DNA from: Chara braunii
Taxonomy: Eukaryota > Plantae > Charophyceae
DNA length: 64,000 bases
Assembly: GCA_003427395.1 (NCBI GenBank)
Contig: BFEA01000003.1
Coordinates: 4,714,266-4,778,265, forward strand
Direction of reading: 5' to 3'
The first letter of the stretch is position 1. Every line of letters begins with the position of its first letter. The position numbers and the translations under genes were made by a program. Shown piece by piece: positions 1 through 62,139 of the stretch. The notes under the pieces are model-generated. The model searched no databases. It worked only from the letters and a program-made list of their open reading frames with translations, and was not told where the DNA came from.

Positions 1-1924
1 AAAGTTTGGTGATTGGTTGTGAATTGGATTGAGATGGGCAAATCACACAACTGTCGTGAGAGGGAACTACCACACAAACTCTTTGTTTGATTGCGATTGG
101 TCTTTTTCTATCCTGATTCTTTAATAGTCAAAGTAGGCGTACGCTCGGATAACCCTCACAAGGATATGCGACTGCACGTTTATGGCTCTCTTTTACTCAC
201 TGATTTTATATGGTCGAACGTAAGTCCCAAGTCCTAGGTCCGGGGCTGAAGGGATTACCCTTCACACAGTTCTGACCTACTTACATCCTTAGGGAAACAA
301 AAGCGCCGCGAGAAGGAGGGACTGACCCCCAGCAACTCGGTCCAGCAGGACATTCATGTCTTCTCCGGCTAGCGACAAACGCCCCTATTCTCTTTCCTTG
401 TTTAGTTTGCTTTTGGTGGAACGATAAAGTTCCGGGCGGAAGGATTAGTGTGTCGCTGGTGATGCGCCAGACAACTCACCACCGCTCCGAATCCCTTCCT
501 GCCCTAGGGACCATCTTACCTCGCACCCCTTGGGACACCTCAGGGTGNTGAAGACGGTAAGGCCCCCAGGCCGGTTTTTGCGCTCACTAAAGGTTTACCC
601 CCTTTAGCGTGCGCTTCAGCCGACGCCTGAGCATTGAAAGCGACCCCATGGCTTAAACGAGGCCACTCGGGTATGGGCACTACATGGTGCGCCGACATCA
701 CGATCGCTTACGCAAATCCGCATTGTTGGTTGATGGGTCAAGCGAAAAAGGCAAAGGCGCGTTATGGCTAGTAGACCCGAGTTTTAATAGCGCGAAACGG
801 CGCGTGGGCGAGATATCAATCCCAGTCGACGTATGGGGGCTCGCGTACGAGCCTCCAACGCCTCGAACAACGGGTTGCCTATGAGTCCAGCTTTGGGCAC
901 CATCCGCACGCATCTCACGGGTTGGCCTACACCTTCCGCTGGAGACTGTTATCAGACTATGAGCTAGACAGAGAGATGAAATAGGGTGATCCCCCCTTTT
1001 TTCTATCTGTAGTTGTTTCCTCTTTTAAGTTTTCTTGGTTGGACGTTGTAGTCCGTGGTAGCCGTCAAAGTCAAACCCCTTGATTTTGGCTACCACGACA
1101 GCTCTCGAGCTGTCTACTCAACCCCTCTGCACAGGGTGCAGAAGAGGGTGTGGTCTTCAACCGCACATGGCGGTTGTCTGGCGTCAAGAGTTAACCCCTC
1201 AAAGCGCCTGTCAGCCGACACTTGAGCGTCGAACGCGACCCTCGAGATTATCAAGGGCCACAAGGCTACGAGTACCACATAGTACCCCATCAGCGCAAAT
1301 GCTTGCGAATGTCCACATGGCTGGTCGATATGAGGGGGTCATGAGCACGCACGACTCTTATACAAAAGTTCAGCGCGCGATGCCTACCTGATTCTCGCAG
1401 CATGAAGTTATGGGTCCGATACTGAAGGGACTAGGAGTGTTGTGATGTTGTGTTTGTTTTGTGTTTTTCCATGTGTTATGTGTGGATAGATGTGAGTGTT
1501 GTGGTGTAACGCGTGGTGTGTGTGATGCATCCTAGTCGACCGGCGCCGAGTCGCGTTTGGGACCTCAGCCCCCAGTACGTTGATTCGCGTGCGGGTTCGA
1601 TTTTCAGGCGTTCAACCGCGCGTAACCCCCTATGCTACAGCGAGCGAGAAACGCCCTTGGCTGGGTCACCACTGCAGTTGCATACGAAAAAGTTTCGCAT
1701 GTGGTTCAGTAGCTCGGCGGGGATACGCCCACCTAAGGGATGGCGACAGCTCCCGCAGGTGGAGGTAAGCGGTGCCTCGCATGACCCTGTCCTATCGTAG
1801 GGGCTCGCGAGAGGTACAGCTGGCGCACTCGGCCGGAGCGGCTAAAACACTCTGCGACAAAGTCCTGCAAAATCTTGCGTGACACGGCCGGGAGGGTCCC
1901 CGTGCGGGACCGATGCGCTCGACA
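1..1924 (+). repeat. 5' LTR of element A (3' portion only)
   Basis: Near-identical to 20390-22566 apart from scattered substitutions, a 79-bp indel and an N gap. Ends in CA, followed by GG and the PBS. Confidence 0.95.
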
Positions 1925-1926
1925 GG

Positions 1927-1944
1927 TGGCGCCGTTGCCGGGGA
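1927..1944 (+). promoter_or_regulatory. Primer-binding site complementary to the tRNA-Asp 3' end
   Basis: TGGCGCCGTTGCCGGGGA, 2 nt after the LTR end. This is the Asp-type PBS known from Athila-like elements. Confidence 0.85.
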
Positions 1945-2292
1945 TCTCGGCTGCCTACCGGGGTCCACAGTGAATGAGCCCAGGTTAAGAGCGGGCAGAT
2001 GATCCAGGCAAAACGACAACCTTTGATGAAGAAGTTTGACGATGATATGAGTATTGTGCTATCTTCGATGGCCTATTAAAGTTTATTTTTGATTGCGAGT
2101 AAGGTTGAGAGTGTGCCTTGTGTGTATTCATTTCAAATAATAGAGTTGGAATTACGATATAAAGACCGGATAGACTACCTTAGTTATTAAGAGTATGTCC
2201 GATTGAATAATGAAACTAGAGAGTTTAGAGGTTTGACGGAAGGTTGTTTGTCGAAATCGTTTTTTTTCGCAACAGGTTGAGAAAGGACAAAG

Positions 2293-5200
2293 ATGCCGGA
2301 CTCCGATGGAATCGAGCGGGGCCCGGGTGCTACACCTTAGGACTTCGTCAAGGCATTGGAAAAAAGAGAGATGGCACGGCTTCAGGTGCCCAAGGTTAAC
2401 ATTTTGCACTTCAACGGGGATAGAGTGTCCGAGTGGCTTGAGTTGTTGGAGCAGGTCACTAGCGAGGCGTCAGAAGCAGACAAATTCAAGCTGATGCCTA
2501 GGTACGTATGGTGGGAGCTTAGACTTGAGGTAGTTTCAAGTAGCGGCCGACGCAAATGGTGAGTGGGCAAGGTTTAAAGAGGAGATGCAGTGGCGTTTCA
2601 AGTTAGGGGACGGCCTGCTCACAAAAGAAGACCTGGAAATGTTGAGACGGGATGAGTTCTCCACGGTAGGGGCCTTTGCCACAGCATTTGAGAAGATGGC
2701 AAAGAAAGTCCCAGGGCTGGTAGAAGAAGAACAGTGTGCCACTTTCCTGGGGCACTTTAAGAATTGGGAAGCCTCGTCGCTAACCAAGAAAGCTGCGTCA
2801 GGAAAGAAACTGACTTGGGGTGCCATAAAAGAAGGCGTGCTAGAGGAAAGGTTGGACCAGGTAGACATCTTCCAGATGAAACAGGCTAGGAAGAAAAGGA
2901 AGACTTTGGATACTATCGCTAGTGATCGGCGCAACTTCAAGCTAATGATAGAAGAGGCTGTGGCCCAGCACCATGCAGAGAAGGAGGCAAGAAAGAAGGC
3001 TATGGCGGCGCCATAAGCCCAAGGGAAAGGAAAGAAGGTGGTAGTGTTAGAGGAGGAGGAGAAAGAAGAAGAAGAGCCTGAACCACAAAAGTCGACAAAG
3101 GCTCAAAGGAAGGCAAGGAACACGACTCAAGGGGGGCAAGGCTCAGGAAAAGGTCAAGCCCCGCAGGCTGTAGCGGCGCCACCCCCTGAATCGTCTAATC
3201 AAGCCGCACCAGCACCCTATGGGTCATGGCCAGGTTGTGGACCTCCCAGTCATTGGCATGGGCACTGTTCATGTGCACCATGGCCAACGGGTGGGCCACA
3301 TGGATCATGTGCCGGAGCGCCGGTGAGTACGGCTTCCTGTGGATGGCCGGGACCCCAGTCTCAACAGGTGAGTCACTCGAACCCACNGCCAAACCAACCT
3401 CAGCAGTTGGCCCCACAAGGATCACAAGGGAATCAAGGCGGTGGACGAGGACAGAATCAAGGATGGGGCCGAGGGCGAGGAAATGGTGGCCGCGGGGGAT
3501 ATGGGAGAGGAAACGCGAACAGTAACTCCCAGAGAGGAGGAAATGACGGGTGGAACGGTGCAGGAAATCAGAGTGACCAGCAAGGTGGTGAAGGATATGG
3601 AAGAGGAAGGGTAGATTGGAGAAATGCCATCTGCTGGCATTGTGGCCAGAAGGGCCACACAATTAAGTTTTGTCAGGTCCGAAAGAGTGATGAAAAGGAT
3701 GGCCTGATGAGCTCAAGCTATGATGGTGATTTTTTCGACATGTACGGTGAGTGCATAGACCCGAGAATCCCAGGGGGGATACGGGAAGAAGCTCTGCGCC
3801 GTGCTAGTGCCCCAGCTCCACCAGCTCCTCCGGCCGCTTTCCGTATTTGGCAGGAAGTAGAAGACCGTCAGGGTGTGAGGATAGAGGAGATAAGCGAGAA
3901 TGAAGAGGTTGAGCAGAGATTGAGGGCCGACACAAAAAAGGAGGAGCCTATAGTGGTTGAATCCGACGACGACGAGCAAGATGGTGGCCACGGCAGGGCA
4001 AGAGACACGATGGAGAGAATGGAGGACCTACTGGCAAAAATCGGGAGGTACCAGGATAAGTTGACCACTCTTTGTGAGGAGGTCAACAGGTGGAAAGGAG
4101 AGTTACCATTGGTGTACCTCATCGATTCAGGCCCAGGGGCACAAGGCGGATGTGGAAATCTGCCCGGAGTGACTGTCACGGCGCCAACTCCCAGGTCTGG
4201 GATGACCTTCAGGCCGCCGTCAAGAGCCGGAAGGGCGGCTTTGGCAGCACGTACTAGATCGAAGGGAGCGCCCGACTCAAGCCATCCCACTCAGGACAGC
4301 CCGGGTCCCAGTGGAGAGAAAGAGATGGTAGAGATTCCAGAGGATGACGAGGACGAGGATGAAAAGTTGAGGAAGGAAGAGGACAAGAAGGCTGAAGAGA
4401 GAGCCAAAAAGAGGGGCGCCAAAACGAGCGCTGATAAAGAGCAGGAGGGAAAGAAGAGAAAGTATAAGGTCAGAATGGAGGAGGGGTTTGATGTGGAAGG
4501 AATGGTCGATCGACTCCTTGAGGGTCATAACGACCTAATGAACTTAAAGGATATCCTCGCTTCCGCTCCAAAATTGAGGGACGAGTTGAAGGCTCGATTG
4601 TCCAGAAGGTTAGTAGCAAGTGTGCGCTTGGGAACCATTATCCCCAAGGAAGCGGAATGGGCAGAGACAGGCACGAAGATGGATTGGAAGTCCGTCGCTT
4701 GTGGATGCTTGGACGTAGTAGTAAAAGGAAAAACGTGCACGACAATGGTGGATACTGGAGAGGAAATTAACCTCATAAAAGAGGAGCATGCTTTACGCCT
4801 GGGGATGGAGATTGATCGCTCCGATAATGGAGTTTTAATGGGAGCGAATAGTCGGTCTGTGTTCATAGGGACCGCATCGAGAATGGTTTTGGAGTTTGGC
4901 AAGGTTAAAGTGAGAAGTTGTTTCTTTGTGATGCCCGATCTCGACCATCCCATCCTATTGGGCCGATCCTTTTTTAGCCGAACGGAGACCGTCATACTGA
5001 ATAAGCATGATGGGACAATGTTCCTCGTCTTATGTGACCCGGTATGTGGCAACTATGAGGTTATCACATGCAAAAATACGGGGCCACAAAGTATAAGGAA
5101 TAGGCCCAATCCTGGCTCTTTCACGATTGAGGAATCGGGAGAAGAAAGGAAGAGGCTAGGAGGGGATGAGTTTGAAGAAGAAAGGAATCCGGAAGCACTG

Positions 5201-5446
5201 ACTCTTAGCCTGACCAATATAGGCGATGCTATGAAGATAGTGTCAACCTATGGGATGGCGGACATGGAGGCCGTAGAGGCCTTGAGAGAAAAGGTGATGG
5301 AACAGATGGGTGAAGGAGAGGTGGAGCTGGTATATTGGACGTCCGGAAAGAGAGGAGGATCGGCTGGAGTCCAACCCCTGTGTGCAATTCGGCCTTTTTT
5401 AGGGGTGGGATCAAGCAAGGGTCACAAAGGCGGTACAAAAGAGTAG
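2293..5446 (+). pseudogene. gag: gag-aspartic protease ORF of element A, disrupted
   Basis: ATG 2293 (MPDSDG...), capsid-like FNGDRVSEWL, zinc knuckle CWHCGQKGHTIKFC, protease MVDTGEEINLI...ILLGRSF. Stops near 2340 and 3014, frameshift near 2540. Confidence 0.9.
5395..5401 (+). promoter_or_regulatory. Putative -1 ribosomal frameshift heptamer T TTT TTA
   Basis: In phase with the gag-PR frame (CCT TTT TTA). The -1 frame continues RGGIKQGSQRRYKRVDKKCRPVP into the RT frame. Confidence 0.7.
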
Positions 5447-8400
5447 ATAAAAAATGTCGCCCTGTTCCTGTGCTCGTGACTGAGGAACAAGAAGTTTATT
5501 ACGAGCGGGAATGAGAGTTGATACGGCAGATGCGAGAGGACGCACAGAATGNGCCATGTCGTATCACTCCTGAGACAGAAAAAACGNTGATTATAGGGGA
5601 GTCCGGCTTCCTTACGGCGCAAGAGGAGAAGCTTATGGTGGAAACCATAAGAGGAAGGCATACTGCATATGCCTTCAATGATGACGAACGGGGCCGTCTG
5701 GATGTGGATAGGATCCCGATGATTAGGATACATATCGTTCCCCATGAGTCATGGAACTTGCGGGGTGCGCGCTATCCTAATCATGCTGATGAAGAAAAGG
5801 TAGTTACCTACCTTGATGGAAACATTCGTACGCACGTATCAGACTACTCGAGTGGGCCATATGCATCCCCTTGGTTTTGTTTCGTCAAACCAAACGGGAC
5901 CTTGAGGTGGGTACAGGATTTGCAGCGCCTGAATGCTGTAACTGTGAGAGATGCAGGTGGTCTCCCTAACGCAGATGCGCTTTCAGAGGCATGCGCTGGG
6001 AGAGTCATCATATCTCTCATAGACTTATATTCTGGTTACGACTGGTTTCCTGTTTACCCCTCTGACAGGCCGATGATGGCAATGCATACCCCTCGAGGGT
6101 TAATTCATATGAACGTCGCACCGCAGGGGTGGATAAATGCAGTCGCCATGGTCCAGAGGCACATGGTGAGGGCAATGTAGCCAGTAAGCCCTCACATTAC
6201 TCAACCTTACATTGATGATTTGGCCGTAAAAGGGTCTAAAGAGAAGAACGAGCAGGAGGTATTGCCAGGGATTAGACGCTTTGTCTGGAACCATGTGCAA
6301 AACTTGTGCAGGGTCCTAGACTTGTTAAAGAAGCATAACCTTACTGCAAGTGGGTCTAAATCGAGGCACTGCATGAGCGGGGCCACCATCTTGGGGTTTG
6401 TGTGCGACGAGAGGGGTCGTCGACCAGACACTAAGAAAACCAATAAGATTCTCGAATGACCAACCCCATTCGAGACTATTACGGAGGTGAGAAGTTTCCT
6501 CGGGACATGTGGGTTCTGGAGGATCTTCATAAAAGGGTTTGCGGCAAAGACGGAGCAACTTCGAAAACTCGTGCGCCAAGGACAAGACTGGGAATGGGGA
6601 GATAAGCAGGAGTTGGTAATAAAGGGCCTAAAGAAGGAATCCGAAGAAGGGGGTCTAGTACTGGGAGTACCGGACCACTCGGCGGTAATGACCAGACCTT
6701 TTATTGTAGAGACTGATGCAGGGCCAACTGCGCTAGGAGGTGTGTTGATTCAGCAAGATCTTAACGGAGAGGAGCGGCCACTAAGGTTTGAAAGTCGCAC
6801 GCTTAACACAACTGAGAGAAATTACTGTCAGTTTAAGTGCGAAACCTTGACGGTTCTCCGTTGCTTAAGAATCTTTAGGAACTGCCTCTTAGGCAGTAGG
6901 TTCGTGTTGAGGGTGGACCCAACTGCTCTAGCCGGTTCTCTCAAGAATTTCGCTCCATCAGACCCGACTATCGCCAGGTGGTTAACATACATCTGGTTGT
7001 TCGATTTTGAATTAGAGCGAATTCCAGGAAATAAGAATAGAGCAGACGGATTGAGTCGAGTTGACTGGGATAAAAATAATCAAGGAGTGATCGAGGATAC
7101 TCGCCAGTCGATGGGTTTCTGGACACTGAGGAGGATGTGAGACTTCACATCAACTCCTGGTCGATGGTCGTGGGTAACTACGTTACTCCTGGGCAACCTG
7201 TGTGGCTCTCGCCTCCAAGACATGTACGACGGCCAGACCTAGTCTTTAAGCCTTTCATCGAAGAGGACTCGTGAGGGATGTCAAACGTGCAATGGATGAT
7301 GGATCTGGCCTTAGCAGACAAATACCAGTTGCACGAAGACCTACTCACAATGGAAAATGGGGCGCAACAGGTAGAAAGACACGAGAGGTCGATAGGTGGG
7401 ATATACCTCTTGGCAAATGCTCTGCTTCAAGACGAGGTGGCAAGGATTGGGGATCAGCGGCAAGGTGAGAATGAGAATGTAGTTCACGAAGGAGAGGACG
7501 ACGATTTTGAAGAAGGAGAGATAAAAGAGGTTTTTCGCATGGAGGAGTATGACGGCATATATCTGGAATTATGAATGCTCCTTTCGTGCGAAATGAGAGA
7601 AACAGATGCGTGCGAGAAAGTCCTCAAGATGCGACCAAACTTCTTGGTAAGGGATGACCATTTATTTATGAGGAGTAAAGGGAAGACTCCAAGAAGGGTA
7701 GTCTGTGGCATCGCTCGTCAGATCGACGTCATAGCTGCTCTACATGATGGTAAGGCAGGTGGCCATAGGAGTAAGGATACAACTTTCCTCGAAATACACG
7801 AGCTATACTATTGCGATGGCATGGGACGAATGATCAACGATTATTGCAAGTCATGTGTTCCATGCTAGGAGCAGTCTTCCATTAGACCTAGGGAGCCACT
7901 TCACCCAAGGTACGTACGCGAGGTTGGGGCGGTCGTGCATTTGGACTTATTGGCAATGCCGCTGGGAGTAGGTGGGTATAACTTTATCTTCGATGCACGA
8001 GACAACCTCTCCGGTTTTGTAGATGGCAGAGCCATACGCACAAAAACTGGTGAGACCTTGACTCGATGCATTGAGGAGTATTACCTCCGCTATCCTTTTG
8101 TCTCCAGATTCGTNATGGACAGAGGGTCCGAATTCACTTGTGCTGAGGTGAAAGAACTGCTGAGAGGGTATGGAGTGATCGCAGAGTATACTACTGCGGG
8201 GCACCCTCAAGCTAATGCACATGTGGAGAGAGGTCATAGTACGATTACGAATCTCCTCGCTAAGTGGACGAATGGTAGGCCAAATCAGTGGCCTAACTTC
8301 CTACGGGTTGCCTTCTTCGTGGATAACATCACTGTCAGAAGAAGCACCAACTACGCGCCAGCAACGTTGTGGTATGGCAGACATGCGACCTTCCCTATCG

Positions 8401-8819
8401 AAAGCTTCCTAAAGACTTGGAGGCGGCAGGACCTCGAGACAAACTTGTCCTTTNAGGAACTGCTAGAACTAAGGGNTCGTCAGATTAATGCCATAGAGGA
8501 CAGAATTGAAAGTGCGGCGAGTNAGGTGGCTGACANCCGANAGAGGGATAAGTTCAGATGGGATAAGATGGCAAGGGTAAGGAAGGAGCCTCTCAAGGTG
8601 GGCGACGTTGTGTTGCTATATGATTCATCCTTAGAGAAGCAGTGGTCGCGAAAGTTAGACAAGAGGTGGTTAGGACCATACAGGGTCGCAAGGAGTGGAG
8701 AGCATGGGACATACCAGATTGAAGAGCTGAATGGGACTGCCTGGAAAGATTGGGTGTCAGGCTCGAGGTTAAAGAAGTTTGTCGCTCGAGACGAGGTGAG
8801 CGTGGGTCCCACAATTTAG
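5401..8819 (+). pseudogene. pol: pol (RT, RNase H, integrase) of element A, disrupted
   Basis: RT motifs PYASPWFCFVK, DLYSGY and YIDD (about 6208). RNase H VETDAG...RFESR...NRADGLSR. Integrase HHCC, HLDL, DRGSEF, VERGH, WLGPY. No chromodomain seen. Several stops. Confidence 0.95.
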
Positions 8820-9086
8820 AGTCCTTTTCTGTTAAGTATTACTAGATAAAGATATATATATAAATATGAGAAAATTGTGTATGTTTTTCAGTAGAATGGT
8901 GTGATAGAGTATAGTATTAAGATATATTTATATACGTGTATTTACACATGTATGTATGTGTAGTTAAGATAGATATGAGAGGGGAATGTTTGTCTCCTGT
9001 TTTGTTTGCCGAACCTGCTTACCCTCTGTATGCTTTTGTCTGTCTCTTCCTTGTTGTGCAGGTTTGACACCAATTTTTGGGCAGCC

Positions 9087-11418
9087 ATGCCAAGAGGGAG
9101 GGGAGGGGCAGGGTCAGTGGAAACCCCTCTGGGGGTTACCAGACAGGGGACGCAGATGAGGGCCAGAAGAGAGGACAGGCCACCCATTTATACAGGAGAC
9201 AACGTTGAGTTGTTCATGGTTGGGTTCAGAAGGTACGGTCATGAGTTTGGATGGGATAGTAGCAGGCTGCTGCAGGAGGTGTGAGGAGCAGGCGAGTGGG
9301 CACATCCCCTTGCCAACTTCGTCAGGGAGTCATTGACCTGGCAGGATTTTGAGAGGAAGATGGAGGGCTTGCACCCATCGCCATTAGGAAGGGATGGACA
9401 ACCCATCCGTTTCGATGCCACTAACTTGTGGGAATTCCTGAAGGGCTACGACGAGTTTGCAGACAGCATCAACAAGCCACCAAGCCAGAGGGTGAGGGAT
9501 TTTATTCTGTTTGTAAGGGAACACCTCAGGTCCTTCATCAGATCTATTGTGGAGCCTGCCACAAACTGGAGCCATTGCAAGAAATTGCTTTGGAACTACT
9601 ATACTCCAGCTCGTCAGGCAGAGGAGAGGAGGAGTGTGCATAGAAAGAGGAAGGAGCCAGAAACTGCAGAGAAGAGAACCTCTGAGCAGGGCATGACCTC
9701 AGGAGCTCAGAGGGATGGCCAGAGGAGAGAGCACAGGTTCCGGAGGCAGGAGAGAGAGGAGGACCAGCATATTGGCAAGACTCAACAGAAAGAGGAGCAG
9801 ACTGCAGAGAGGACCCAGAGGGGAGGGCCCTCAGGTGGATCAGATATACCTCCTCACCTTGCTCACGTACCTGAGACCACTCCTAGGCCAGGCATGCAGC
9901 CAGAGACGTCTCATAGGGCACAGGGTCAGGGAAAGGATGAGGATCAGGCTGCAAGAGAGAAGGAACAGGACAAGGAAGAAAGAGCGGCAATAGAGAGAGA
10001 AATCAGAGTCCAAATCAAACTCAAGAACATTGCGGAGCTGCACGAGAAGTTTAAGCAGGGAGAGCAGCCTGTGATACTAGAAGGCAGAAAGGGGAATGGC
10101 TCACCTACTCAAGACGATGAGACTCCTCTTTTCATAGAGGCTTGAGACAACTTTGATAAGTTGTTGGAGGCAACAGGGAGGCCCAGGGAGGCCCAGGGAG
10201 CAGCATCAGGAGATGGGGGTTAAGCTGGTCTCTACAGACTTGCTTAGCCTGAAGGGCCTTACGAAAGAGGGTTTTGCGGCGGCCAAGACTTCTAATGAAA
10301 AGATGGAGAAGAGGTTGACGAGGGTGGCACGGGCGTCTCATGAGCAGAGAATGGACTGGCAAAAAGAAATTGGTGATCTCAAGAAGGAGTTGGAGAGGCA
10401 GGACAAGGAGATGGAAGCCATAAAGACTGAGGTGGAGAAGGCTTGGGCAGGCAACGAGGCCATCAGACAGGTCAACCAGACCCTTAACAAGGTCAATGAC
10501 AATCTGAGGGCCTACTTGCAGATACAGCAGAACACCTTTCAAGTAAAGAAGACGAAGTGGGAAAAGAGAATCATGGACCTTAAGGCCAAGTGTGCACAGC
10601 AGGCACCTACTGCAGTGGTAGACTGAACAGAGGTCCAGAGGTTTGAGATCAGGAAGCAGCCTGCAGAAGAGGCCTTCAAGTGTCAGAAGGTGGAAGAGAG
10701 GGCAAACGACCAGAAGGATGAGGAAATCCCCCTGCTAGATAAAAAGATGTTGCAGTCTGAGGACGCCCTAGCAAAGATGAAGTCAGGAACCGGGGGGTTT
10801 GAGTGGAGGATGCCCACAGTCTTGGCACATGAGGCAAGGCCACCAGCAGAGGATGCGATGGATGAAGCTGCACTTCCCGTGACTCAGGAGGAGACTGTGG
10901 GGAGACAGGAGGTTCAGGAGAGTGTGGGACAGGCCATGGCTGAGGCTGAGGAAAGGGAGGAGCAGGAGGTATCTCAGAAGACCCCACCATCTCAGGATAT
11001 GCCTCTAGTTGCAGGTCTGGAGGATGCATTGGGATCTTGGGCCACTGGATCCGGGGCAGAGGAGCGAGTGAGTGAGCAGATGGCCCAAACAGATGACAGA
11101 GCAGCATGCCCCATTTCCCCAGAGCACCCACAGCAGGAGGTCACCAGCGAGGCCACAGCAACCCCCTCATCTGTACCCTCCCATGCAGCTGACAAGATGG
11201 AGCAGAAAAGGTTTGGAAGATGCTTCTACTGCAAGAGAGGCAAGCACCCACAGGAGACCTGTCCCAAAAGCCTCAAGGATGAGGCTGATGGTTTGTTTTC
11301 ATGGGACCCATCTGGCGTACGCAGGGACAGAGATGGGAACCTGATCCTGAAGACTCGTGATGGGATACGAGCGCAGTTGTATAGGCAACTGCAGGAGGAC
11401 ATGAGTGATCAGGAGTAG
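9087..11418 (+). pseudogene. Second Gag-like ORF downstream of integrase (two capsid-like segments, coiled coil, CCHC zinc knuckle)
   Basis: ATG 9087 follows a pyrimidine-rich ...TGCAG acceptor (9061). Motifs PPIYTGDNVELF, FDATNLWEFL...WSHCKKLL and CFYCKRGKHPQETC. Stops at 9282, 10143 and 10624; frameshift from a 10-bp duplication near 10175-10195. Confidence 0.7.
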
Positions 11419-14670: not shown

Positions 14671-14735
14671 GTCCTGCGGGACATCCGTTAAAATTGGAAC
14701 GATACAGAGAAGACTAGCACGNCTCCCTGCGAAGG
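14671..14735 (+). ncRNA. U6 snRNA-derived fragment (5' ~60%) inside element A
   Basis: GTCCTGCGGGACATCCGTTAAAATTGGAACGATACAGAGAAGACTAGCACGNCTCCCTGCGAAGG matches the plant U6 5' stem-loop, ACAGAGA box and AGC region. The U6 3' end is absent. Confidence 0.9.
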
Positions 14736-16192: not shown

Positions 16193-18040
16193 CGTGCCGT
16201 GAATATTGCCACAGCTAAACCCCGCGGGCAGCAGATTACCGTGGGTAACTCCCAGTCAGGTTGCCACGGATGCTGTTGGGTGCTGAGTTGTCATGCACTG
16301 GATCTCCTGTGCACTATGAGACTAACCGGGCCTGCTGTACCATTGCAGGTGCTACCACTATACCATCAGCCACTACTACTACGATGCCATGAAGAGGGGC
16401 AGCTAATAATTGCTAACAGCTGAGGATACGGGCTGCCGCATCAAGGGCAGCCACCACTGTAAACAGGGTGGGTTTTGCTGCCTTCTTTTCAAGATACTGT
16501 GGATCCTTCTACTCGGTACTGCTGCTACCATTACCAGGCGGTGGTTGGGTATCATTGGTGGTACGGGGAGGGGGATAAGTGACCAGTGGTCAACCGTTGG
16601 ATTGCTGTAGAAGGAAAGTGAGACCGTGGCAACTACCGCACGAGTGTCGCAGGTCCGTGTCACCAGCCACCTGTTGCTGACTGACAGAGTGCCTAGGCCT
16701 GCTGCAGGTTANATTGAAGATACCCANNAACGGCTGGGGNNNGTTCTGCTGTGCTTTCGGAGTGGTGTTGCTGTGTCTTGTTGGCCTTGCTGGTTGCCTG
16801 GTTCGGGGGCTACCACTGCGGCCGGTACCTTGTCTCCCGGTTGTTGCCCCCCTCCACTTCGAGTGTTACTGACGACTTGGCGACCGGCTAGTACAAGGAA
16901 GGTGTAGTTGCAGCAAGGTGAACTTCTCCTTCGGCTGCTATAGCCGTGGCCAGCTGTGCGACTATGCTGCCCGGAATCGCTGATGACATACATCGCCTAG
17001 TGCTGCTATCATAGTGTTACCCCGTTCTCTCGTGGGCGTCAGGTGGTTGTGTAATTGTCGGCACTCCTATTCTGCTGTAGCTGTGTATGGGCAGCTGCTG
17101 AGTTTGGCGGGTCTGTGGCTGCATAGTGGGTGACGCTTTACAGTACACTCAGTGTCTGCTGCTGAGTAACTGTACTAATTACGGTGCTCAATGCTCCTTG
17201 CCGTACTCTGCGCCTTGTGGCTACACGCCCTGTGTTGACTGCGGGGTGCTGCGCGGGCTGGGTGCTGCTCCCCACTGAGGACTTTTGCTGGGGGCTGGCA
17301 ATTGAGGGCCGACTAATCCAAGCTGTTGTATTCTACTGGCCACTGGGGGCTAGGTACAGACTGTGACTATTGCAGGCCGTTCGTCTTATTGAGTACGCGA
17401 CGGCCAATGCAGCAGTCCGGACTGCTGCTGAGATAGGCTCGGGTGGGGTGCTGTCGCGGTATTGGGCGTTGTTTGGGGTGCTGTTGCTGCGCAGAAACGC
17501 CGTGCCTTACTAGAAGCAGCAACAACTTGGGTTGGTGAAAGGGGGCAAAGTGAGAGAAGGGAATGTGGTAACCGTGAGGAGTGAGACCGGGCTTGGCAAC
17601 GAGGACTATGGCTGCGACTTGAGGGGGTTGCGGGGGTACCGTTTGAGATTGGTAATCTGCACTTAGCTGCGGGCTGAAGGGTGCTACTNCACTATCTGGC
17701 CATCATTGCGGGGCCCTCAGGCGAGTNAAGGCTTCAAGGCCCTCTCACGCGAGTCTGAGAGCACCCATCTGAGAGTCTGACTTATTCTCTTTCTGCCCTT
17801 CTCAGTCTCAGTCTAGTCTATTGGTGCCGAGAGGGAAGCGGCAGGCGGGATTGCAACCCGTAGGTCNNNNNNNNNNNNNNNNNNNNNNNNNNNNNNNNNN
17901 NNNNNNGACATGCGATGCAAAGGTTTAATAAACAAGTATATATGAGAATTCAGATAACTTTTGAGAGAATTCAGACAAANGAATTGGGGGAAGGTGGGAT
18001 GAAGGAGTTTTTGCATGCGTCTGACCGCGTCAAACCCAGG

Positions 18041-19250
18041 CTGAGTCCCTCCGGGTGGATGTNGGCTCAGTGCTATGTTTTGTTGAGGTTTGCTGTATTG
18101 AATGAATGACTTTTATGGCTGGTCCACCCGGGTGGGATAGGATCAGTCGCTGTTTTATTTTAGGGTTTCTGAACAGGAGGACGGGCACCCCGGGTGGGGA
18201 AGGCTCAGAATCTTGGTGTTTATTTTAATGAGTTGTGGTGCGTGTTTTCTTCTGAGGGAGTAACGGCATAAGACTAAGCGTACCCTAGGGTTAGGGCGGC
18301 TTAGCCATGAGCCATGAACTAAATGGTCAACCAGAGTATAAAATTTGATATATATACAATTTGAACTTATACTTCTGACAGACTGGGCGCCCCGGGTGGG
18401 GAAAGTCAGTAAGTGAGTCAGGTAGAACTAAAGAAGAGGGAAAGAGATGAAGAGTAAAATGAAGGTAACTGGGCAGACTGAACGTACCCTAGGGTTAGGG
18501 CGGTTCAGTTATATGCTCATGATAACACTAAGGAGCAGAGAGTTAGTATAAATCTTATTTTATTTCCCCTTCTAGACGTGAGGCTGAATCGGAAGTTCCA
18601 CTAGTTAGAAAGGTCCGATTGACTGCCTAACAAGAGAAGGAAAAACATAAAGTCTGTGAAAGTATTTGTACCCTATTTTCTGTTGTATGGCTAACTAGGC
18701 GTACCTTAGGGTTAGGGCGGCCTAGCGATAAGCCTTTGTCGTTTAANGTAAGTTGGANGTACCCTAGGGTTAAGGCGGTCCAGCGTTTCGGTATTTATAA
18801 CTGTTCAGGCAGATCAGGCACACCCTAGGGTTAGGGCAGCCTGATCACATTGCCTTATGTAACTTAAATTGTATGGCTAACTAGGCGTTCCCCAGGGTTA
18901 GGGCGGCCTAGTAATATGCCTTTGTCGTTGATGTGCTGTGGGTTGGACGTAACCTAGGGTTAGGGCGGTTCAACTTTTTGTCGTTTGTACTTANGTTCAG
19001 GCAAGCTAGACCTACCCCTGGGTAGGGATAGTCTAGAATAATGTCGTATGTAACTTCGTTTAAAGCAGACTGGGCATACCCTAGGGTTAGGGCAGCCCAG
19101 TCCTATGCGCTTGTTGTTAGTTAGGCATATACCTTATGTGTATAGTTCCTGTCATGTTGGGCACACCCTAGGGTTAGGGCAGTCCAATTGTGTGTGCCTT
19201 ACTCGTGTACCTAGGCAGGTCAGGCATACCCTAGGGTTAGGGCTTTGTCT
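18041..19250 (+). repeat. Array of about 15 stem-loops with a conserved GGGT tetraloop and co-varying stems
   Basis: Inner CCCTA-GGGT-TAGGG or CCC-GGGT-GGG, an internal loop, and outer stems that differ between copies but stay complementary. Confidence 0.9.
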
Positions 19251-22200
19251 CACCGTATGCCATAGGAAAGGGGGATGTAAAAGGGAATAACGAGATTTTT
19301 TGAACGAACTATGAGGTTGAAAGAAACCTGAGGGTTGGTGAGAGATGTTCGTTGTGATTGTTTGTGTGTGTGTTTGCGGACTCTCACTCTGGGACATCTT
19401 CTGATAGGATTAGTTGCTTTAGATGCTCGCTGAGTGCTGGAGCCATAGGCAGATAAGATGGATGATGGGAGAAAAACTTCGGATAAGATAGAACTTGGCT
19501 CTGCTAGGACTTAGGATCAGTGCTAGCTCACGCTCTCATCTAGAGGTCGTGCAGACTATCACTGATTCTACCTTTCAAAGTAAGCGTCAGAAGTTAGTCC
19601 NAAGTANAGTTTTGCTTTGTCTTCCTATTTTTAGCTTTGTATAAATCTTGGCAGCCTCCTTTTCCTACNGGAAGCGCTGCNGAAATTTCTACAAATCANA
19701 AAGAGTTAGTCATTTTTGGGCTTTCAGAAATTCTGAAAAGACACTTTTCCTACGGGAAGCGCTGCCGAAATTTCATAGAAATCGAGGAGTTANAATAATT
19801 TATGCTAGGAGAAACTTGGCAAGTNCACCCTGAATAGAGGAGATGCTGCCAAATTTCTCAGGACCCAGATTANAAAANGGAAGCTGAGTTTAAGACTAGT
19901 AGAGGAGCTAGGATACGAGATAGAAAGTATTCTCCATGTGAGGTAAACGTCGTAGTGGTTCTCTTTGGCCTGTACTGTGATGCAGGTCTTTGTGACTTGG
20001 TTGAAGGATTGATCNGGCCAGCATAATCCTGTTAAGGATTATTCTTCTGTTATCATTGATAACAGGTCGGTTGCCGATTCGTCGGCTTACGACTCAACTT
20101 TCCTACTACTTCTGCTTCTCAACCTAAAAGCCTTGGCCCTTGTTGGTTTATTGTTTTCTTTGGCCCTTGTTGGTTTATTGTTTTCTTGGGTTTTCACCCA
20201 GATTCTTTATAAATGGTCATTTCTTTAAAGACTGAGTATCTTTGTTATGGAAAGGTGGGGAATAGGTTGGGCTTGTGCGCGTAAGGTAGGGTGTGAGCTG
20301 CAGAAGGCTGAAAAGTTGACCCCTTTAGTGTGTGTGATGTCGTTTGATTTNTGTATGTGATCGCAGGTATGTGTGGAGAAACCTCGATAAAAGTTTGGTG
20401 ATTGGTTGTGAATTGGATTGAGATGGGCAAATCACACAACTGTCGTGAGAGGGAACTACCACACAAACTCTTTGTTTGATTGCGATTGGTCTTTTCCTAT
20501 CCTGATTCTTTAATAGTCAAAGTAGGCGTACGCTCGGATAACCCTCACAAGGATATGCGACTGCACGTTTATGGCTCTCTTTTACTCACTGATTTTATAT
20601 GGTCGAACGTAAGTCCCAAGTCCTAGGTCCGGGGCTGAAGGGATTACCCTTCACACAGTTCTGACCTACTTACATCCTTAGGGAAACAAAAGCGGCGCGA
20701 GAAGGAGGGACTGACCCCCAGCAACTCGGTCCAGTAGGACATTCATGTCTTCTTCGGCCAGCGACAAACGCCCCTATTCTCTTTCCTTGTTTAGTTTGCT
20801 TTTGGTGGAACGATAAAGTTCCGGGCGGAAGGATTAGCGTGTCGCTGGTGATGCGCCAGACAACTCACCACCGCTCCGAATCCCTTCCTGCCCTAGGGAC
20901 CATCTTACCTCGCACCCCTTGGGACACCTCAGGGTGTTGAAGACGGTAAGGCCCCCAGGCCGGTTTTTACGCTCCCTAAAGGTTTACTCCCTTTAGTGTG
21001 CGCTTCAGTCGACGCCTGAGCATCGAAAGCGACCCCATGGCTTAAACGAGGCCACTCGGGTATGGGCACTACATGGTGCGCCGATATCACGATCGCTTAC
21101 GCAAATCCGCATTGTTGGTCGATATGCGTAAGTCCTATAGTCGCGCGGCCTTATGTTAACCCGCGCGCGTGACACTTACCGATTTCCACACCTGAAAGTT
21201 GTGGGTCAAGCGAAAAAGGCAAAGGCGCGTTATGGCTAGTAGACCTGAGTTTTAATAGCGCGAAACGGCGCGTGGGCGAGATATCAATCCCAGTCGACGT
21301 ATGGGGGCTCACGTACGAGCTTCCAACGCCTCGAACAACGGGTTGCCTATGGGTCCAGCTTTGGGCACCATCCGCACGCATCTCACGGGTTGGCCTACAC
21401 CTTCCGCTGGAGACTGTTATCAGACTATGAGCTAGACAGAGAGATGAAATAGGGTGATCCCCCCTTTTTTCTATCTGTAGTTGTTTCCTCTTTTAAGTTT
21501 TCTTGGTTAGACGTTGTAGTCAGTGGTAGCCGTCAAAGTCAAACCCCTTGATTTTGGCTACCACGACAGCTCTGGAGCTGTCTACTCAACCCCTCTGCAC
21601 AGGGTGCAGAAGAGGGTNNNNNNNNNNNNNNNNNNNNNNNNNNNNNNNNNNNNNNNNNNNNNNNNNNNNNNNNNNNNNNNNNNNNNNNNNNNNNNNNNNN
21701 NNNNNNNNNNNNNNNNNNNNNNNNNNNNNNNNNNNNNNNNNNNNNNNNNNNNNNNNNNNNNNNNNNNNNNNNNNNNNNNNNNNNNNNNNNNNNNNNNNNN
21801 NNNNNNNNNNNNNNNNNNNNNNNNNNNNNNNNNNNNNNNNNNNNNNNNNNNNNNNNNNNNNNNNNNNNNNNNNNNNNNNNNNNNNNNNNNNNNNNNNNNN
21901 NNNNNNNNNNNNNNNNNNNNNNNNNNNNNNNNNNNNNNNNNNNNNNNNNNNNNNNNNNNNNNNNNNNNNNNNNNNNNNNNNNNNNNNNNNNNNNNNNNNN
22001 NNNNNNNNNNNNNNNNNGCGATGCCTACCTGATTCTCGCAGCATGAAGTTATGGGTCCGATACTGAAGGGACTAGGAGTGTTGTGATGTTGTGTTTGTTT
22101 TGTGTTTTTCCATGTGTTATGTGTGGATAGATGTGAGTGTTGTGGTGTAACGCGTGGTGTGTGTGATGTGTCCTAGTCGACCAGCGCCGAGTCGCATTTG

Positions 22201-23890
22201 GGACTTCAGCCCCCCAGTACGTTGATTCGCGTGCGGGTTCGATTTTCAGGCGTTCAACCGCGCGTAACCCCCTATGCTACAGCGAGCGAGAAACGCCCTC
22301 GGCTGGGCCACCACTGCAATTGCATACGAAAAGCTTTCGCATGTGGTTCAGTAGCTCGGCGGGGATACGCCCACCTAAGGGATGGTGACAGCTTCCGCAT
22401 GTGGAGGTAAGCGGTGCCTCGCATGACCCTGTCCTATCGTAGGGGCTCGCGAGAGGTACAGCTGGCGCACTCGGTCGGAGCGGCTAAAACACTCTGCGAC
22501 AAAGTCCTGCAAAATCCTGTGTGACGCGGCCGGGAGGGTCCCCGTGCGAGACCGATGCGCTCGACAGCGTTATGCCCTGGCTTGAAAAGCCCTTCGATGC
22601 ATGGTCCGAATTGGACTGGGAGAACACAATGAAAGACTGCCCTTGAGCATCTGATTATCGACTAGCATTCATCCAAGAATGGGGGACATTCATCTTCCTC
22701 GACCAAATCCTCGTGACGAAACACACGCCGGTGTTGTCTGCGGCATTTCGTACCCAAGACCGTTTTTTGCCGTTGACTGCGCACAACGTGTCGTGTCCAC
22801 CACGCTTGTGGGAACCATCGATGAAGATGGAGTTGCTCGACTGCGCGAAACAGAACCAGTTTCTAGAGGAATATCCCTTCCTTTCCAGGACAACTTGACG
22901 GGGAGTGTGTCGTACTTTTGCGTGATCTTTGTCGTTTCTCTTTCGCTAGGGTTCTTTGTGTTTTGGTAAGAAATAGAAGTAAGACTTCAGTGGAAGCGAG
23001 TATTTACGTGTCCTGAAACGGGCTCATCGTTGACGGGGACTCGATTATGTAAACGCATGGTTGGAGGAACGGTAGGTTTGACGTGAAACTGGCGGGCCAG
23101 GTCGATACACCCCGGCATTGGTAGGAGGTCGAGGAGTACGTGAAGGTCATTAGAGATGACATCGGTCGCACTTTAGCGAGATCATGTGGTTTCATCCGTG
23201 CACGATACGTGTCTTGCTTCTCCTCCACTGCAACCCTGTGCAGTCCACAGCTCCTGACGTACGGTTCATCCCTGAACACAGTGTACAGTTTCGGGGCGAA
23301 AGGAAAGGCGAGGTCGAGGGGGAGGTCATGGGAGATGAACAGTGTAGGACATGTCAGCTATTCAGCTGTTCAGCAAAAGTGACACCGAAGACTGTGTATG
23401 CGTGCGAGCATTGAGTTTGATGTGAGCTTGTCAATGTCGGTTTAACCTCCCTCTCTCTTTCTCTCTCTTATGTGTGCGTGTGTGTGTTTAGTGATCGGTG
23501 GAGCGTACTGTTAGTCGCTCGTTGCGGGTGCCGGTTACCTGCCTTGCCAATTGAATGCCTCGAATTGATGATGGATGTAAGTTTCCAATTGATGTGCCTT
23601 GATTGGTGTGCCTTGTTTGTGACGCCGCTTCCTGTTCAGCGAAAGATGAACAGTTTGAGAAATGTGGGTCATTCAGCAATAGTGTGGACTGAGAATGTAT
23701 GTGTTATGAAAGCAATGGGTTTGATGTGAAAATGTCGATGCTGGCTTTCGATCCTTCTGCTTTGTTTGATGTGACTTTTAGCTATGCCGCTCCCGTGTTC
23801 TGTTTGTCTGCTTTTGGATACGCCGTCCCGTTCCCGTGTTCTGTTTGCCAGCCCGGTCGTGTCGAACTGTCACGCTGCCCCCCCACGTTT

Positions 23891-24545
23891 GAGTCAAACT
23901 CGATCGAATCGACCTCCATCGAGTCGATCTCGATCGAGTCGAACACGATCGAGTCGAACACGATCGCCTGGACTCATGATCGGATCCAACACGATCGTCT
24001 GGACTCACAATCGTCTGGACTCACGAACGCCTGGACTCACGTTCGAGTCGACACGATCGGCTCGAAGACGATCGCCTTAACTCACCATTGAGTCGAACAC
24101 GATCGCCTGGGCTCACGATCGACTCGAACTCGATCGAGTCGAACACGATCGTGTCAAACTCGATCGAGTCGAGCATGATCGAGTCGAGCATGATCGAGTC
24201 GAGCACGATCGTGTCGAACTCGATCGAGTCGAACACGATCGCCTGGACTTACAATCGACTCGAAAACGATCGAGTCGAACACGATTGAGTCGAACGTGAT
24301 CGTGTCGATCATGATCGAGTCGAACACGATCGAGTCAAACACGATCGAGTCGAGCACGATCAAGTCGAACACGATTGAGTCGAACGCGATCGAGTCGATC
24401 ATGATCGAGTCGAACACGATCGAGTCGAACACGATAAGCCTGGACTCACAATCGAGTCGAACACGATCGAGTTGGTCTGTCACGCTCACACCGAACAAGA
24501 TCGTGTTGACCACGGGCATGATCACGATCGAGTTGAACACGATCG
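23891..24545. repeat. 15-bp tandem repeat, consensus ATCGAGTCGAACACG
   Basis: Roughly 40 degenerate units, with interspersed GCCTGGACTCAC variants. Confidence 0.95.
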
Positions 24546-31202: not shown

Positions 31203-32004
31203 TGCATGACCCTTCGTTCCAGATTCCTTTAGCAACAAAATGTCTCACCGTAGAAGAAAAGGAGTATCTTGACATGATTACAGGCAGCAGCGAAGACAAT
31301 AAAGCATACAGCATTGTCGATTACAAGGGGAGCTAGAAGGTGGGAAAGGAAGACATCATGGTCGTCGTCGAGGATGGGAAATGGCTAAATGACGAAGTCG
31401 TCAATTTGTACCTGCTAGCCGTTTAGATCACCAATGATCACATCAAGGTTGATTCGGCATGTACAGAAGTGACAAGAGATAGGGTTCTTTTTGTGCACAT
31501 TTTCAGTTTTTTTTCTTCACTCGATTGTCAGGTCCTTCGAGGTTTGAAACCGCATATTCCGAAGGAATGAAATGGGTGAAGGACACAAATTTTTTTTATT
31601 ATAACTTAGTGATTATCCCTCTTCATTTTGAAAATCACTGGGCGTTAGCTTATGTCAGCATAGACGGTCCTAACTGTAAATTCCACCTCATAGACTCTCT
31701 CCCTCGTGCTGACTATGTTTCAGTCCTTGAACGTTTTGAAGATTTTTTCGAAGCGGAGTTTCATCGACACAATCTTCGCGAAAGATATTATGTGGACGGT
31801 CCTACATCCTCCTTTGATACATCAATGGATGGGATTCCTACTCAAGAGGATCTTTGTAGTTGTGGTATTTTTATGTTAGGTTTTGCATCTTTGCTTGCAA
31901 GAGGTCACTTCCCTCCATTTGTTTTCTCACAAGCCAACATTTCTGATATGAGGCTTAGAATAGCATTTGACATTTTGTCCATGGTTAGATACGAAAGTCA
32001 ATGA
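31203..32004 (+). pseudogene. Ulp1/SENP-like cysteine protease (peptidase C48), disrupted
   Basis: KWLNDEVVNLYL, IPLHFENHWAL, LIDSL, PTQEDLCSCGIFML (His-Asp-Gln-Cys set present). Two stops and a frameshift in the 5' part. TGCAG acceptor at 31202. Confidence 0.9.
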
Positions 32005-32352: not shown

Positions 32353-35068
32353 TGTAGTCCTTCACAAAGTCATTGCGTTTCGGCCAGATGTACAGGCGGC
32401 TCACACTAGCCAACGTCTTGTGGAAGCCCATATGAAAGGCGGCTGCCTGGTCATGGAACTCTGCCACTTCTCGGACACGTAGTTGTCCAGTGGAGGGAAC
32501 GCAAATACGGGGCTATCTGGTGCCCTGTGAACCGTGCCAGTACACGAGACCGTTGTCCGCGAGGACGTAGTTCGGGACGGTCTTGCCACTCTGAAGGGTC
32601 GCGTGGATGTTGCGATAGTCGGGGCAGTGGCGGTACTGAGTGCGAAACTCGTCGATCACCGAGTGGTGGACGGTGGTCACCGAGATGGAAGAGAGTTGGA
32701 TTTGCTCCTGGTCGTGGTCAGGGCGCCGGGATAAGGCATCTGCGACCCGATTAGTCTCACCCTTGATGTGCTCAGTGGTGAAACTAAACTCGGATAGGTC
32801 GCGCCACCAGCTAGCCTGTCGAGGAGTGCGTTTCAACTTTGACAGAAAAACATGGACAACATAGTTGTCCGTGCGCACCGTGAATGGTGCCCCGTGCAGG
32901 TAGTGACGTCAGTGTCAAGCGGTATAAACTATTGCGAGAACCCGGCGGGCAGGAGCTGACGGGAGTAGAAGGCTATCGGGCAATCACATGAGTGAAACTC
33001 GACGGTGTCGTCCTCGGCGATAGTAGGAGAATACTCAATAGAAAACTCGTCAGTAGCTGGACGAGTAGGCGTCAGTCGGGAAGCAGTGGTAGGGGTAGGG
33101 GGAGCGAAGCGAGGGATACGAGGATGAGAGGACTCAGGAGAGGAAGGGAAGACTTGGGAAAGCATTGCTCCTACAGCAAAGTCTGACGCATCGGTGGTAA
33201 GGATAAAAGGTCGATCAAATCGGGTAGGTGAAGAACCGGTGCGCATGTCACCGCCTTCTTGAGGGCGCGGAAGGCGTCCTCGTGGAGGGGTGTCCAAGCC
33301 CAGGGTGGGTTCTTCCGGAGGAGGGTGGAGGTAAGGACGTAGGAATACCTAGCGTATCCCCGGATGAAATTACTATAGTAGCTAGTCAAGCCTAGGAAGC
33401 TGCAAAGCTGCTTGGCAGATGTGGAGGCGGGCCACTCTGCAATAGCATTGATCTTCACGTCGTCCATGTGGAGACCCTGGTCAGACACGTAGTGTCCTAA
33501 GAAATTCACTTTGTGTTGGGCAAAGCGGCACTTGCTCAGCTTGGCGTAGAAGCCATGTCTGCGCAAGCGGTCAAGGACATCGCGGAGGTGTCTGAGGTGC
33601 TCCTCAAGGGTACGACTGTAGACCANGATATCGTCGAGGTAGACGAGAACGTACTGCTCCACGATGTCCCTGAAGATGTCGTTCATCGACCTCTGGAAGG
33701 TAGCGGGTGCGTTGGTGAGGCCGAATGGCATCACCGTAAACTTGTAGTGGCCGAAGCTCGATCGGAATGCGGTCTTCGGCTGGTCGGCTACAGCGACGCG
33801 GATCTGATGGTAACCGCTACGAAGATCAGTCTTCGTAAAGAAGCGGTTCTCTGCTAGGCGGTCAAACAGCTCATCGAAACGAGGCATGGGTAGCTGTTCT
33901 TAACCGTGTAGCGGTTGAGACCGCGGTAGCCGATGCAGAGACGAAGAGTTTCATCCGCTTTGCGAGCAAAGAGGACGGGTGCACCCCACGGGGAGTTGCT
34001 GGGTTTAATGAAACCCAATCTCAGGAGCTCCTCAAGCTGACGCTCGAGTTCGGTGGCCTCGGGGATCGAGAGTCTGTAGGGTGCCTGGTGGTGAACACAA
34101 TAGTCAGGCACAAGCTGGATGGAATGCTCGACGTCGCGAATCGGTAGGATGCCAGCGTGGGAGAACGACGATAGGAAAGCGTCGTGGTACTCTCAGATGA
34201 GGTCACGAACTGCGGGCTCCAGGTCAGTCGTATAGCGTGCGAGTTCCTCAGCGTCAGCGTCAGCGCGGAACGGCTGGGTGGACTCGACGGACGGCGGAGG
34301 GACGGAAGTAGAGATGGGAGTCATGGAGATAGAAGGAGGATCTAGCTCCAGAGGGATGAGCTCGGCGTCGGGACAGGGTGGATCATAGTATAAGAGATCC
34401 GTCACGTTCACCATAAAGAAGGTGACGACGTCTTGTCGGATGAAGTGGGCGAACTGCCGAGGCGAGGTGACAGTGATATAAAGAGATGGTGTGGGCACAG
34501 AAGGCTCCGGGGGAGGAGGATCGGGGCGTGGTGTCGCAGTGGTACCTATGAAAGGTACGCGATACGTTTGTCCACACTTCGTTTTGAGAACGAGAGTGTT
34601 GGTCGCACAATCGGCTTCGGTGCTGCAGAACCGACGAGACCACGGAGTGTCGAGAATGAAGTTGTACCTCGTCTCCATCACATCGAAATGTGTAGAGGAG
34701 CGGTAGCGACGAGACGCCGCTGGACGATCAGTCCGCTCGAGAGTGAGGAAGAAAGGGAGGTTGGTGACCGTCTGATCGAAGAAGCGTTGGGTCTTGTCAT
34801 CCCCTAGGGTGACAGAGATGGGAGTTGGAGACCCGGTCGTGGGTAAGCGGGCTTCTTTCACCACACGTGGGTGAATGAAGTCGCTCTGAGAACCGGAATC
34901 CCACAGCGTTGAGTACACCCTCGTGAAGGTCCCCAGTTGTACGGGGATGATCGGAAGGGTGCGATCAGGATTGGAAAGGATGGTGAGAAGGCGACGCGTG
35001 GCAACGACATGGAGGGTGGGTCGCTCCTGACGAGCCTGGAGCATGCTCAAGTCCAGAAGAGAGGACAC
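32353..35068 (-). pseudogene. pol: pol of element B (PR, RT, RNase H, partial integrase)
   Basis: LWDSGSQSDFI; [35 protein letters not shown]; TTDASDFAVGA, PIAFYSR, NRVADALSR; FHDQ...HMGFHKT...YIWPK. Frameshifted. Confidence 0.95.
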
Positions 35069-35414
35069 AACGCCCTCGCGAGTAGCGAGCTGCTCGCTGC
35101 AACGGGCTGAGCGAATGGCTCGACGCGTCCGTAGTCCCAGCGGGGAAGGAGGGGAGACGGTGGTCTGCAGGGGCGCAGACGGTACTCCGATAGGGGCTTA
35201 GTACACTCTGTCGAGTCCTGCGATACCTGAACTCCAGTAGGGAGAGGGGCGAACCGCGACGGAGATGTCAGGAAGCCGACTACTGAGGAGGGCGCAGGTG
35301 TACACTGCACCGTGGCTAGGAGGCACCGCGGGGATGCGAGGCGCCAGGAAGGGACGAAGCACGACGCTGGCGGGGAAGGTCAGCGTAGTGGCAGTCAAGG
35401 GCGGTGGTGTAAGG

Positions 35415-37361: not shown

Positions 37362-37786
37362 GGGAAGGTGACGGGGTGGACTGGAGGGGGCCAGGAGAGG
37401 TCCGTGTGAGCGGAGGGCGTAGGGGGAAGTCCGCGGTAGGAAGCGGTGGACGGCGCTCGCAAGGCTGGCGCGGGCACCGTCAAAGGGGGAGGGATGGTTC
37501 GGGTCCAGGGTGCCCGAAGAGGACGGGGAAGTACGGGAGGGTTTGAAGAACCCTTAACCCTATCAAAACCCTAAGAAAACCCTCACCGAAGTTTGGGTGG
37601 TTAGGGTACGGTGTCGGTAACTTACTCAAGTAAATAAAGCAGCAAGCATAGGGGGGGGGGGAAGGCGGAAGAAAAATAAATAAACAGCAAGATTTCGAGA
37701 GAAAAATAAAAGAAAATAAATAAGAAAAATATTTAAAAAAAATAAGTAAACAAAATATGAAGAGAGAAACAATATTTATTTTTTTG

Positions 37787-62067: not shown

Positions 62068-62119
<52 letters not shown>

Positions 62120-62139
62120 TCTCTCTCTCCCCCTGCCCC

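Follow-up and report, generated by a model that had tools for sequence, protein, structure and literature searches.

The window analysed here, a stretch of 64,000 nucleotides from Chara braunii, carries at the 3' end of a Ty3/Gypsy retrotransposon a real array of 15 hairpins whose three-tier shape is probably under selection. The array is best explained, with a probability of roughly 35%, as a multivalent RNA trafficking signal that would act in the element's sense RNA, serving export or stability in the manner of RTE and CTE, with selection acting on its shape.

Positions 1-22566 of the window are assigned by sequence to one Ty3/Gypsy LTR retrotransposon, whose continuity from pol to the array is presumed because two N gaps lie between them. 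The features of this element are:

1-1924, plus strand: 5' LTR, truncated by the window start and matched to the 3' LTR
1927-1944, plus strand: primer binding site sequence, directly behind the 5' LTR
2292-8819, plus strand: gag-protease-RT-RNaseH-integrase, disrupted by stops and frameshifts, with a CCHC knuckle at 3632-3673
9087-11418, plus strand: putative second Gag-like ORF (ORF2), with a capsid-like N-terminus, a coiled coil and a CCHC at about 11215-11262; broken in this copy
18040-19261, plus the likelier strand: hairpin array of 15 units, with a loop-to-loop spacing of 58-217 nt (58-87 in the 3' nine)
19264-19275, plus strand: candidate PPT (purine tract), followed by TG at 19276 as candidate LTR start; adjoins the last unit
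20390-22566, plus strand: 3' LTR, the part defined by the match to the 5' LTR; its 5' border is further upstream

The LTR sequences at 1-1924 and 20390-22566 match in three pieces at 96.5-98% identity (38 differences in 1696 columns), and about 75 bases of the 3' LTR (21118-21197) are absent from the 5' LTR at 729-734. We take the primer binding site at 1927-1944 to be of the tRNA-Asp type, as in Athila. The Pfam domain order, protease-RT-RNaseH-integrase, is that of Gypsy elements, and the integrase (7869-8816) is 85% identical to C. braunii CBR_g29805; 15 of its 19 matches are C. braunii gene models, and no relatives were found in viral contigs. No additional RNase H, a trait of the Tat clade (Ogre, Retand), was detected by Pfam in three related gene models spanning the RH-integrase interval, where a much diverged domain in the linker of about 200 residues could escape detection. 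The region 3' of the second ORF is long and non-coding and contains the two N gaps, and the array lies at its end, contiguous with 3' LTR sequence. A 5' fragment of U6 snRNA in the element's 3' region (14671-14731, plus strand; 42.3 bits, E 6.6e-8, slightly below the gathering score) was possibly captured by template switching, and a low-complexity segment at 16193-17866, whose minus-strand translation is rich in Ala, Thr, Gln and Pro, is a possible decayed antisense ORF. Elsewhere in the window, about 38 tandem copies of a 15-bp repeat (23884-24545) precede a set of broken ORFs, the last of them a Ulp1-like protease at 31483-32004; this is likely a DNA transposon. The minus strand carries a second, unrelated Gypsy-type element with RT (33171-37553), an F-box/LRR ORF (43295-44872) and a Harbinger-type DDE transposase fragment (62036-62854).

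If the LTR begins at the candidate position 19276, the array is located outside it, in the interval from pol to the 3' LTR. The TG at 19276 is absent in another subfamily (16 and 13 contigs plus 8 reads, with loose ends at 19279), so the array may sit either immediately before the LTR or within U3. There is a slim chance that the array is part of the U3 of a long LTR, acting as a DNA-level promoter module and as a source of hairpin-derived small RNAs, for which the available text on Sireviruses offers a precedent (PMC2829016; PMC4728375). The 5' border of the LTR could indeed be upstream of the array and TATA-like sites occur at 19640 and 20208; however, a good PPT-plus-TG candidate directly follows the last unit, and the binding of double-stranded DNA needs no outer arms that vary yet remain complementary. 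At 5-8 bp, furthermore, the helices would make short substrates for Dicer. A sharp depth peak at 19397-19483, in DNA and RNA runs alike, points to a segment common to many more diverged families than its flanks.

The 15 units present agree with the preliminary description of about 15 GGGT-loop stem-loops, and all nine of the paired outer stems it named (e.g. CTAAGC/GCTTAG, CTAGGC/GCCTAG and GTTGGAC/GTTCAAC), as well as its varied inner stems (CCCTA/TAGGG, CCCT/AGGG, CCCC/GGGG and TCC/GGA), were found in the sequence. Ten units belong to a main type: the inner stem has 5 bp, the outer stem 6-8 bp, and the internal loop is 3x2, or 3x4 in one unit. In the other five the inner stem is 3-4 bp. A third, basal helix, of at least four Watson-Crick pairs past a 3' bulge, occurs in 7 of the 15 units versus 1.7 in shuffles, a comparison in which the units are not independent; this helix is a third tier that the preliminary description lacked. 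The units, each with the position of its GGGT loop, are:

18040-18071, plus strand: unit 1, loop at 18053; short inner TCC/GGA, outer stem of 8-9 bp with one N
18116-18149, plus strand: unit 2, loop at 18130; inner CCC/GGG, outer stem of 10 bp; folds clearly better on plus (-18.5 versus -10.0)
18183-18206, plus strand: unit 3, loop at 18192; inner CCCC/GGGG, short outer stem; the weakest, failing the fixed hairpin test
18273-18306, plus strand: unit 4, loop at 18288; main type, with 5 bp inner stem, 3x2 loop and outer stem
18375-18421, plus strand: unit 5, loop at 18394; inner CCCC/GGGG, outer and basal helices
18470-18519, plus strand: unit 6, loop at 18492; main type, basal helix, 3 nt bulge
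18689-18734, plus strand: unit 7, loop at 18709; main type, basal helix; direct duplicate of unit 10, flanks included
18752-18784, plus strand: unit 8, loop at 18767; main type, decayed in this copy
18807-18855, plus strand: unit 9, loop at 18828; main type, basal helix, 4 nt bulge; better on minus (-29.6 versus -26.0)
18880-18912, plus strand: unit 10, loop at 18895; main type
18940-18976, plus strand: unit 11, loop at 18957; main type
19006-19036, plus strand: unit 12, loop at 19020; variant with 4 bp inner CCCT/AGGG
19065-19108, plus strand: unit 13, loop at 19084; main type, basal helix; better on minus (-29.1 versus -24.3)
19156-19188, plus strand: unit 14, loop at 19171; main type
19214-19261, plus strand: unit 15, loop at 19234; main type, 3x4 loop, basal helix

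In a fixed hairpin test over the whole window, 14 of 300 plus-strand GGGT sites pass, all inside the array, and 2 of 197 on the minus strand, both outside it; shuffling the array gave a mean of 0.05 and a maximum of 1 (300 shuffles). A covariance model trained on the ten main-type units produced 11 significant matches in the window, all within 18268-19259 and corresponding to the ten plus unit 12. The four 5' short-stem units were not recovered by the model, nor did it find such an array in the second Gypsy-type element. Tandem Repeats Finder reported no head-to-tail array within 18040-19261 and no Rfam family matched the array up to an E of 1. A coding role for the array was rejected, every frame containing 19-36 stops.

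Covariation was assessed on paralogous units of this one copy, related by a nearly star-shaped tree, rather than on phased independent copies. Among the ten alignable units, six of the eight outer pairs contain double changes and 92% of cells pair. Double-change cells number 18 versus 8.1 in shuffles, with a score reached by 0 of 500 shuffles and a pair count (6 of 8) reached by 51 of 500, although these tests overstate significance because the units are paralogues. Of the 50 cells at the five variable outer pairs, 7 depart from Watson-Crick pairing, versus 23.8 expected with independent sides. On a tree built from the flanks, itself nearly a star, 14 changes share a branch versus about 6 for non-partner columns. 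The double changes in the ten units are transitions without exception, and CpG decay was rejected as their origin since the C lies in a CpG for just 1 of 26 G-C or C-G pairs (outer pairs 2-7).

That selection acts on a folded single-stranded structure, as had been proposed, has good support: double changes are more numerous than half changes and do not lie at CpG, asymmetric loops and bulges are retained while the stems turn over, and a third helix is present. A neutral origin is rather improbable. Under that account, a hairpin repeat would have spread by template switching and slippage during reverse transcription, and arm-to-arm copying would have kept the stems complementary with no functional selection. 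It draws on the block duplication within the array and on the skips and back-jumps in other copies described below, as well as on the paralogy of the units, which inflates shuffle significance; variable family-specific arrays are, in addition, common in this region of plant elements, as far as the available part of PMC11963269 goes. However, arm-to-arm copying or any other palindrome-perfecting process would be expected to close the 3x2 loop and the bulge of 3-4 nt as well, but both are still there, and independent decay predicts far more half changes than were seen. Moreover, stems make up 29% of positions but contain only 4 of the 29 intermediate-frequency letters listed for other copies (p=0.04). 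We infer selection in preference to a process that makes palindromes.

The family to which the array belongs has many copies, as indicated by the DNA contigs lying over it: 1659 and 1304 on 18759-19600 in two runs of one sample and 1123 on 17981-18746 in one run. A soil run and a presumed-RNA contig run gave only 6 contigs each, too few for use. Differences in other copies were taken at the positions listed (40 of 149 and 40 of 115), of which 16 beyond 19256 were dropped and 64 kept. Among these 64 listed positions, 17 are on stems, where the other-copy letter creates a Watson-Crick pair in 12 cases and a G-T pair in one, leaves the position unpaired in one and breaks a pair in three (18287, 18384 and 19188). 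Most of the listed stem letters thus give Watson-Crick pairs, which makes this copy a decayed member of a better-paired family.

The array has grown by block duplication. The segment 18683-18929 matches 18869-19118 at 72% and seven unit pairs exceed a shuffled flank null, so the spacers, which had been called unrelated, are in part related. Furthermore, contigs of other copies skip and jump back at the joints, indicating that blocks of units are gained and lost and that unit number varies. Loose ends of other copies also include AAGT-loop forms at 18897 (12 contigs and 9 reads), 18140 (24 contigs) and 18290 and 18494 (1 contig each), so the GGGT loop is invariant only within this copy. Readings of the array as G-quadruplexes or decoy 5' splice sites were set aside, being at odds with units 1-3 and with the AAGT variants.

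Relatives of the array were sought in viral and metagenome contigs, where a 21-nt core pattern had no match. A looser two-unit pattern had no viral matches and 62 metagenome loci, which were rejected as telomere-like or simple repeats: none matches the element by tblastn or blastn, and they score 19-25 bits versus 50-66 for the ten training units. It is highly unlikely that the core imitates telomere repeats (TAGGGTTAGGG) and recruits telomere or telo-box proteins. The motif TAGGGTTAGGG is intact in 8 of the 15 units of this copy and the same 14-mer core is frequent in telomere-like repeats of unrelated metagenome contigs, but units 1-3, 5 and 12 and the AAGT variants retain the hairpin without the motif, and the covarying outer stems are left without explanation. 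No telomere motif for Chara was found in the available portions of PMC3622300, PMC8287931 (main text) and PMC7046594.

Which strand folds is not settled by these data, because the bias in G-T pairs is like the neutral one and the minus strand folds about as well; the sense RNA is favoured at about two in three. The proposal that the array folds in the sense transcript stands in so far as 10 of the 15 units fold better on plus in isolation, but the argument that an excess of G-T pairs marks the plus strand is not confirmed: G-T exceeds A-C at fixed pairs by 9 to 4 (p=0.27; the register of the unit at 18053 was set by hand), the same ratio as among neutral LTR-LTR differences (21 C/T versus 11 A/G), and at four of these nine G-T pairs most other copies have a Watson-Crick pair. 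When the whole array is folded, the inner stem has a probability above 0.5 in 7 of 15 units on plus and forms in 11 of 15 on minus. On the latter strand, the near-invariant A-C that closes the base of the inner stem reads as G-U.

Structure on the minus strand, either in an antisense RNA running from the 3' LTR toward 16193-17866 or in single-stranded minus cDNA beside the plus-strand primer site, is an unlikely alternative. In its favour, units 9 and 13 form near-continuous stems of 14-15 bp with one bulge on that strand, the inner stems in context favour it, units 4, 9, 10, 12 and 13 fold better there, and antisense ORFs at this position are typical of Retand elements in the available part of PMC11963269. 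On the other hand, the plus fold is the better one for units 2, 3, 5, 11 and 14 and is also favoured by the 5' units and the basal G-T pairs, and translation of 16193-17866 in this copy gave no long open frame. The few reads of two RNA runs would also indicate sense RNA if the libraries were stranded, a property for which there was no control: all 7 reads in X10 and most of the 10 in X12 have the first mate on minus, which in most stranded libraries corresponds to sense. Meanwhile, the 209 reads of run X11 are about equal in both directions and track the DNA depth profile, and 0 of the 226 RNA reads are 99% alike to this copy. These scarce RNA reads derive from other copies and are no demonstration of expression.

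Two proteins of the element are candidate partners for the array, since Gag and ORF2 each contain one CCHC knuckle, that of ORF2 lying near its C-terminal end with a weak Pfam match (E 0.45). ORF2 is found family-wide, with relatives in 21 Chara gene models and in many Chara Gypsy copies (43-96% identity), and it lies behind an acceptor-like pyrimidine tract and CAG at 9059-9061. Judging from a low-confidence structural model of its N-terminus (mean pLDDT 48), ORF2 looks like a second Gag: capsid domains account for 14 of the best 17 structural matches, the best with Z 6.4 and an rmsd of 2.9 over 76 residues. Foldseek returned no match for ORF2 at E 0.001 or better, and Pfam none for its N-terminus. 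The observed/expected CpG ratio is 0.25 in ORF2 (9087-11418) versus 0.73 in gag-pol.

These proteins bear on the main rival to a trafficking signal, which is nevertheless unlikely, namely that the array in the sense RNA serves packaging or particle nucleation, its loop guanines bound by the CCHC knuckles of either Gag or ORF2 and its self-complementary core perhaps able to dimerise two genomes. Retroviral Psi consists of 2-4 different hairpins in the 5' leader whose G-containing loops are bound by NC knuckles, and retroviral packaging signals are usually 5'. The Chara array is likewise made of short hairpins with G-containing loops in an element with CCHC proteins, but it lies at the 3' end, has 15 similar units and can have AAGU as its loop. 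The capsid-like fold predicted for the ORF2 N-terminus, the spread of ORF2 relatives, the knuckle in both ORFs and the palindromic core ACCCTAGGGT all suit packaging; against it, the palindrome is buried in a stem and missing in units 1 and 12, the AAGT variants retain only one G, the position is unlike that of the usual signals, and the covariance model finds no unit in the element's 5' leader. The analogy drawn earlier with zinc knuckles that bind G-rich tetraloops is weakened by the loop variants and the 3' position.

In the favoured trafficking model, the roughly 15 duplicated hairpins at the element's 3' end would fold in the sense RNA and bind many copies of one protein, with the GGGT loop and the 3x2 internal loop presumably forming the binding surface and a host export factor, Gag or ORF2 as putative partner. 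Should ORF2 be translated from a spliced message, the full-length RNA would still contain an intron and would need export aid; the bound array may then help this long, likely intron-containing RNA to exit the nucleus or to stay stable. A 3' array would be present in spliced and unspliced RNA alike, which fits trafficking better than selective packaging. A more specific and quite improbable version is a Rev/RRE-like circuit in the green lineage, in which a spliced second Gag-like protein would bind the 15-unit array and control export or packaging of genomic RNA.

Both CTE and RTE have a 3' non-coding position adjoining the LTR, and the Chara array probably has one too. The RNA transport elements RTE (IAP), MTE (MusD) and CTE (MPMV) and the RSV direct repeats, for which function in the NXF1 pathway is demonstrated in the available text of PMC12786077, PMC3856414 and PMC3362945, are similarly structured cis-RNAs in LTR retroelements. 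They are, however, single or paired elements, whereas the Chara structure has 15 units in an array, its function is a proposed one, and no sequence likeness to them was seen. In Cer1, another Gypsy-type element with an extra protein, the CERV protein from a spliced message is needed for export of genomic RNA, according to the accessible part of PMC10309623, and it offers a model for a possible role of ORF2; it differs in that no hairpin array is described for it, the words 'stem-loop' and 'tandem' being absent from that text, and that the Chara ORF2 looks like a second Gag.

Retand elements commonly carry repeat arrays of unknown function after pol, adjacent to the 3' LTR, as stated in the available parts of PMC11963269 and PMC6317226. 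The Chara element shares with the plant Gypsy elements described in the former a long non-coding region after pol, extra ORFs and a family-specific array near the 3' LTR with a varying number of units. Those arrays are head-to-tail, in contrast to the Chara array, which is not tandem by Tandem Repeats Finder and conserves a three-tier hairpin while stem sequence and spacers turn over; unlike the Tat clade, moreover, the Chara element has no additional RNase H by Pfam, and its extra ORF is sense and Gag-like. Sireviruses also have clusters of many palindromic, hairpin-capable motifs, located in the LTR or at the 3' end of the element (PMC2829016; PMC4728375, in part), but the host is Copia and the core a CGG-CCG dyad, whereas the Chara element has Gypsy domain order and another core. 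Compensatory stems with fixed asymmetric loops do not feature in the available sections of their description. The literature covered contained no description of the array or of a GGGU-loop hairpin; outside that coverage are the Chara genome paper and a 2009 paper, reportedly on Ogre 3' UTR repeats, which may bear on novelty.

According to the available text of PMC12786077, there has been no direct study so far of RNA export of plant LTR elements. The Chara array differs from known 3' LTR-proximal arrays in that its shape is conserved and not its sequence. This conserved shape provides a ready design for stem-breaking and stem-restoring tests, with two candidate partner proteins in the same element.
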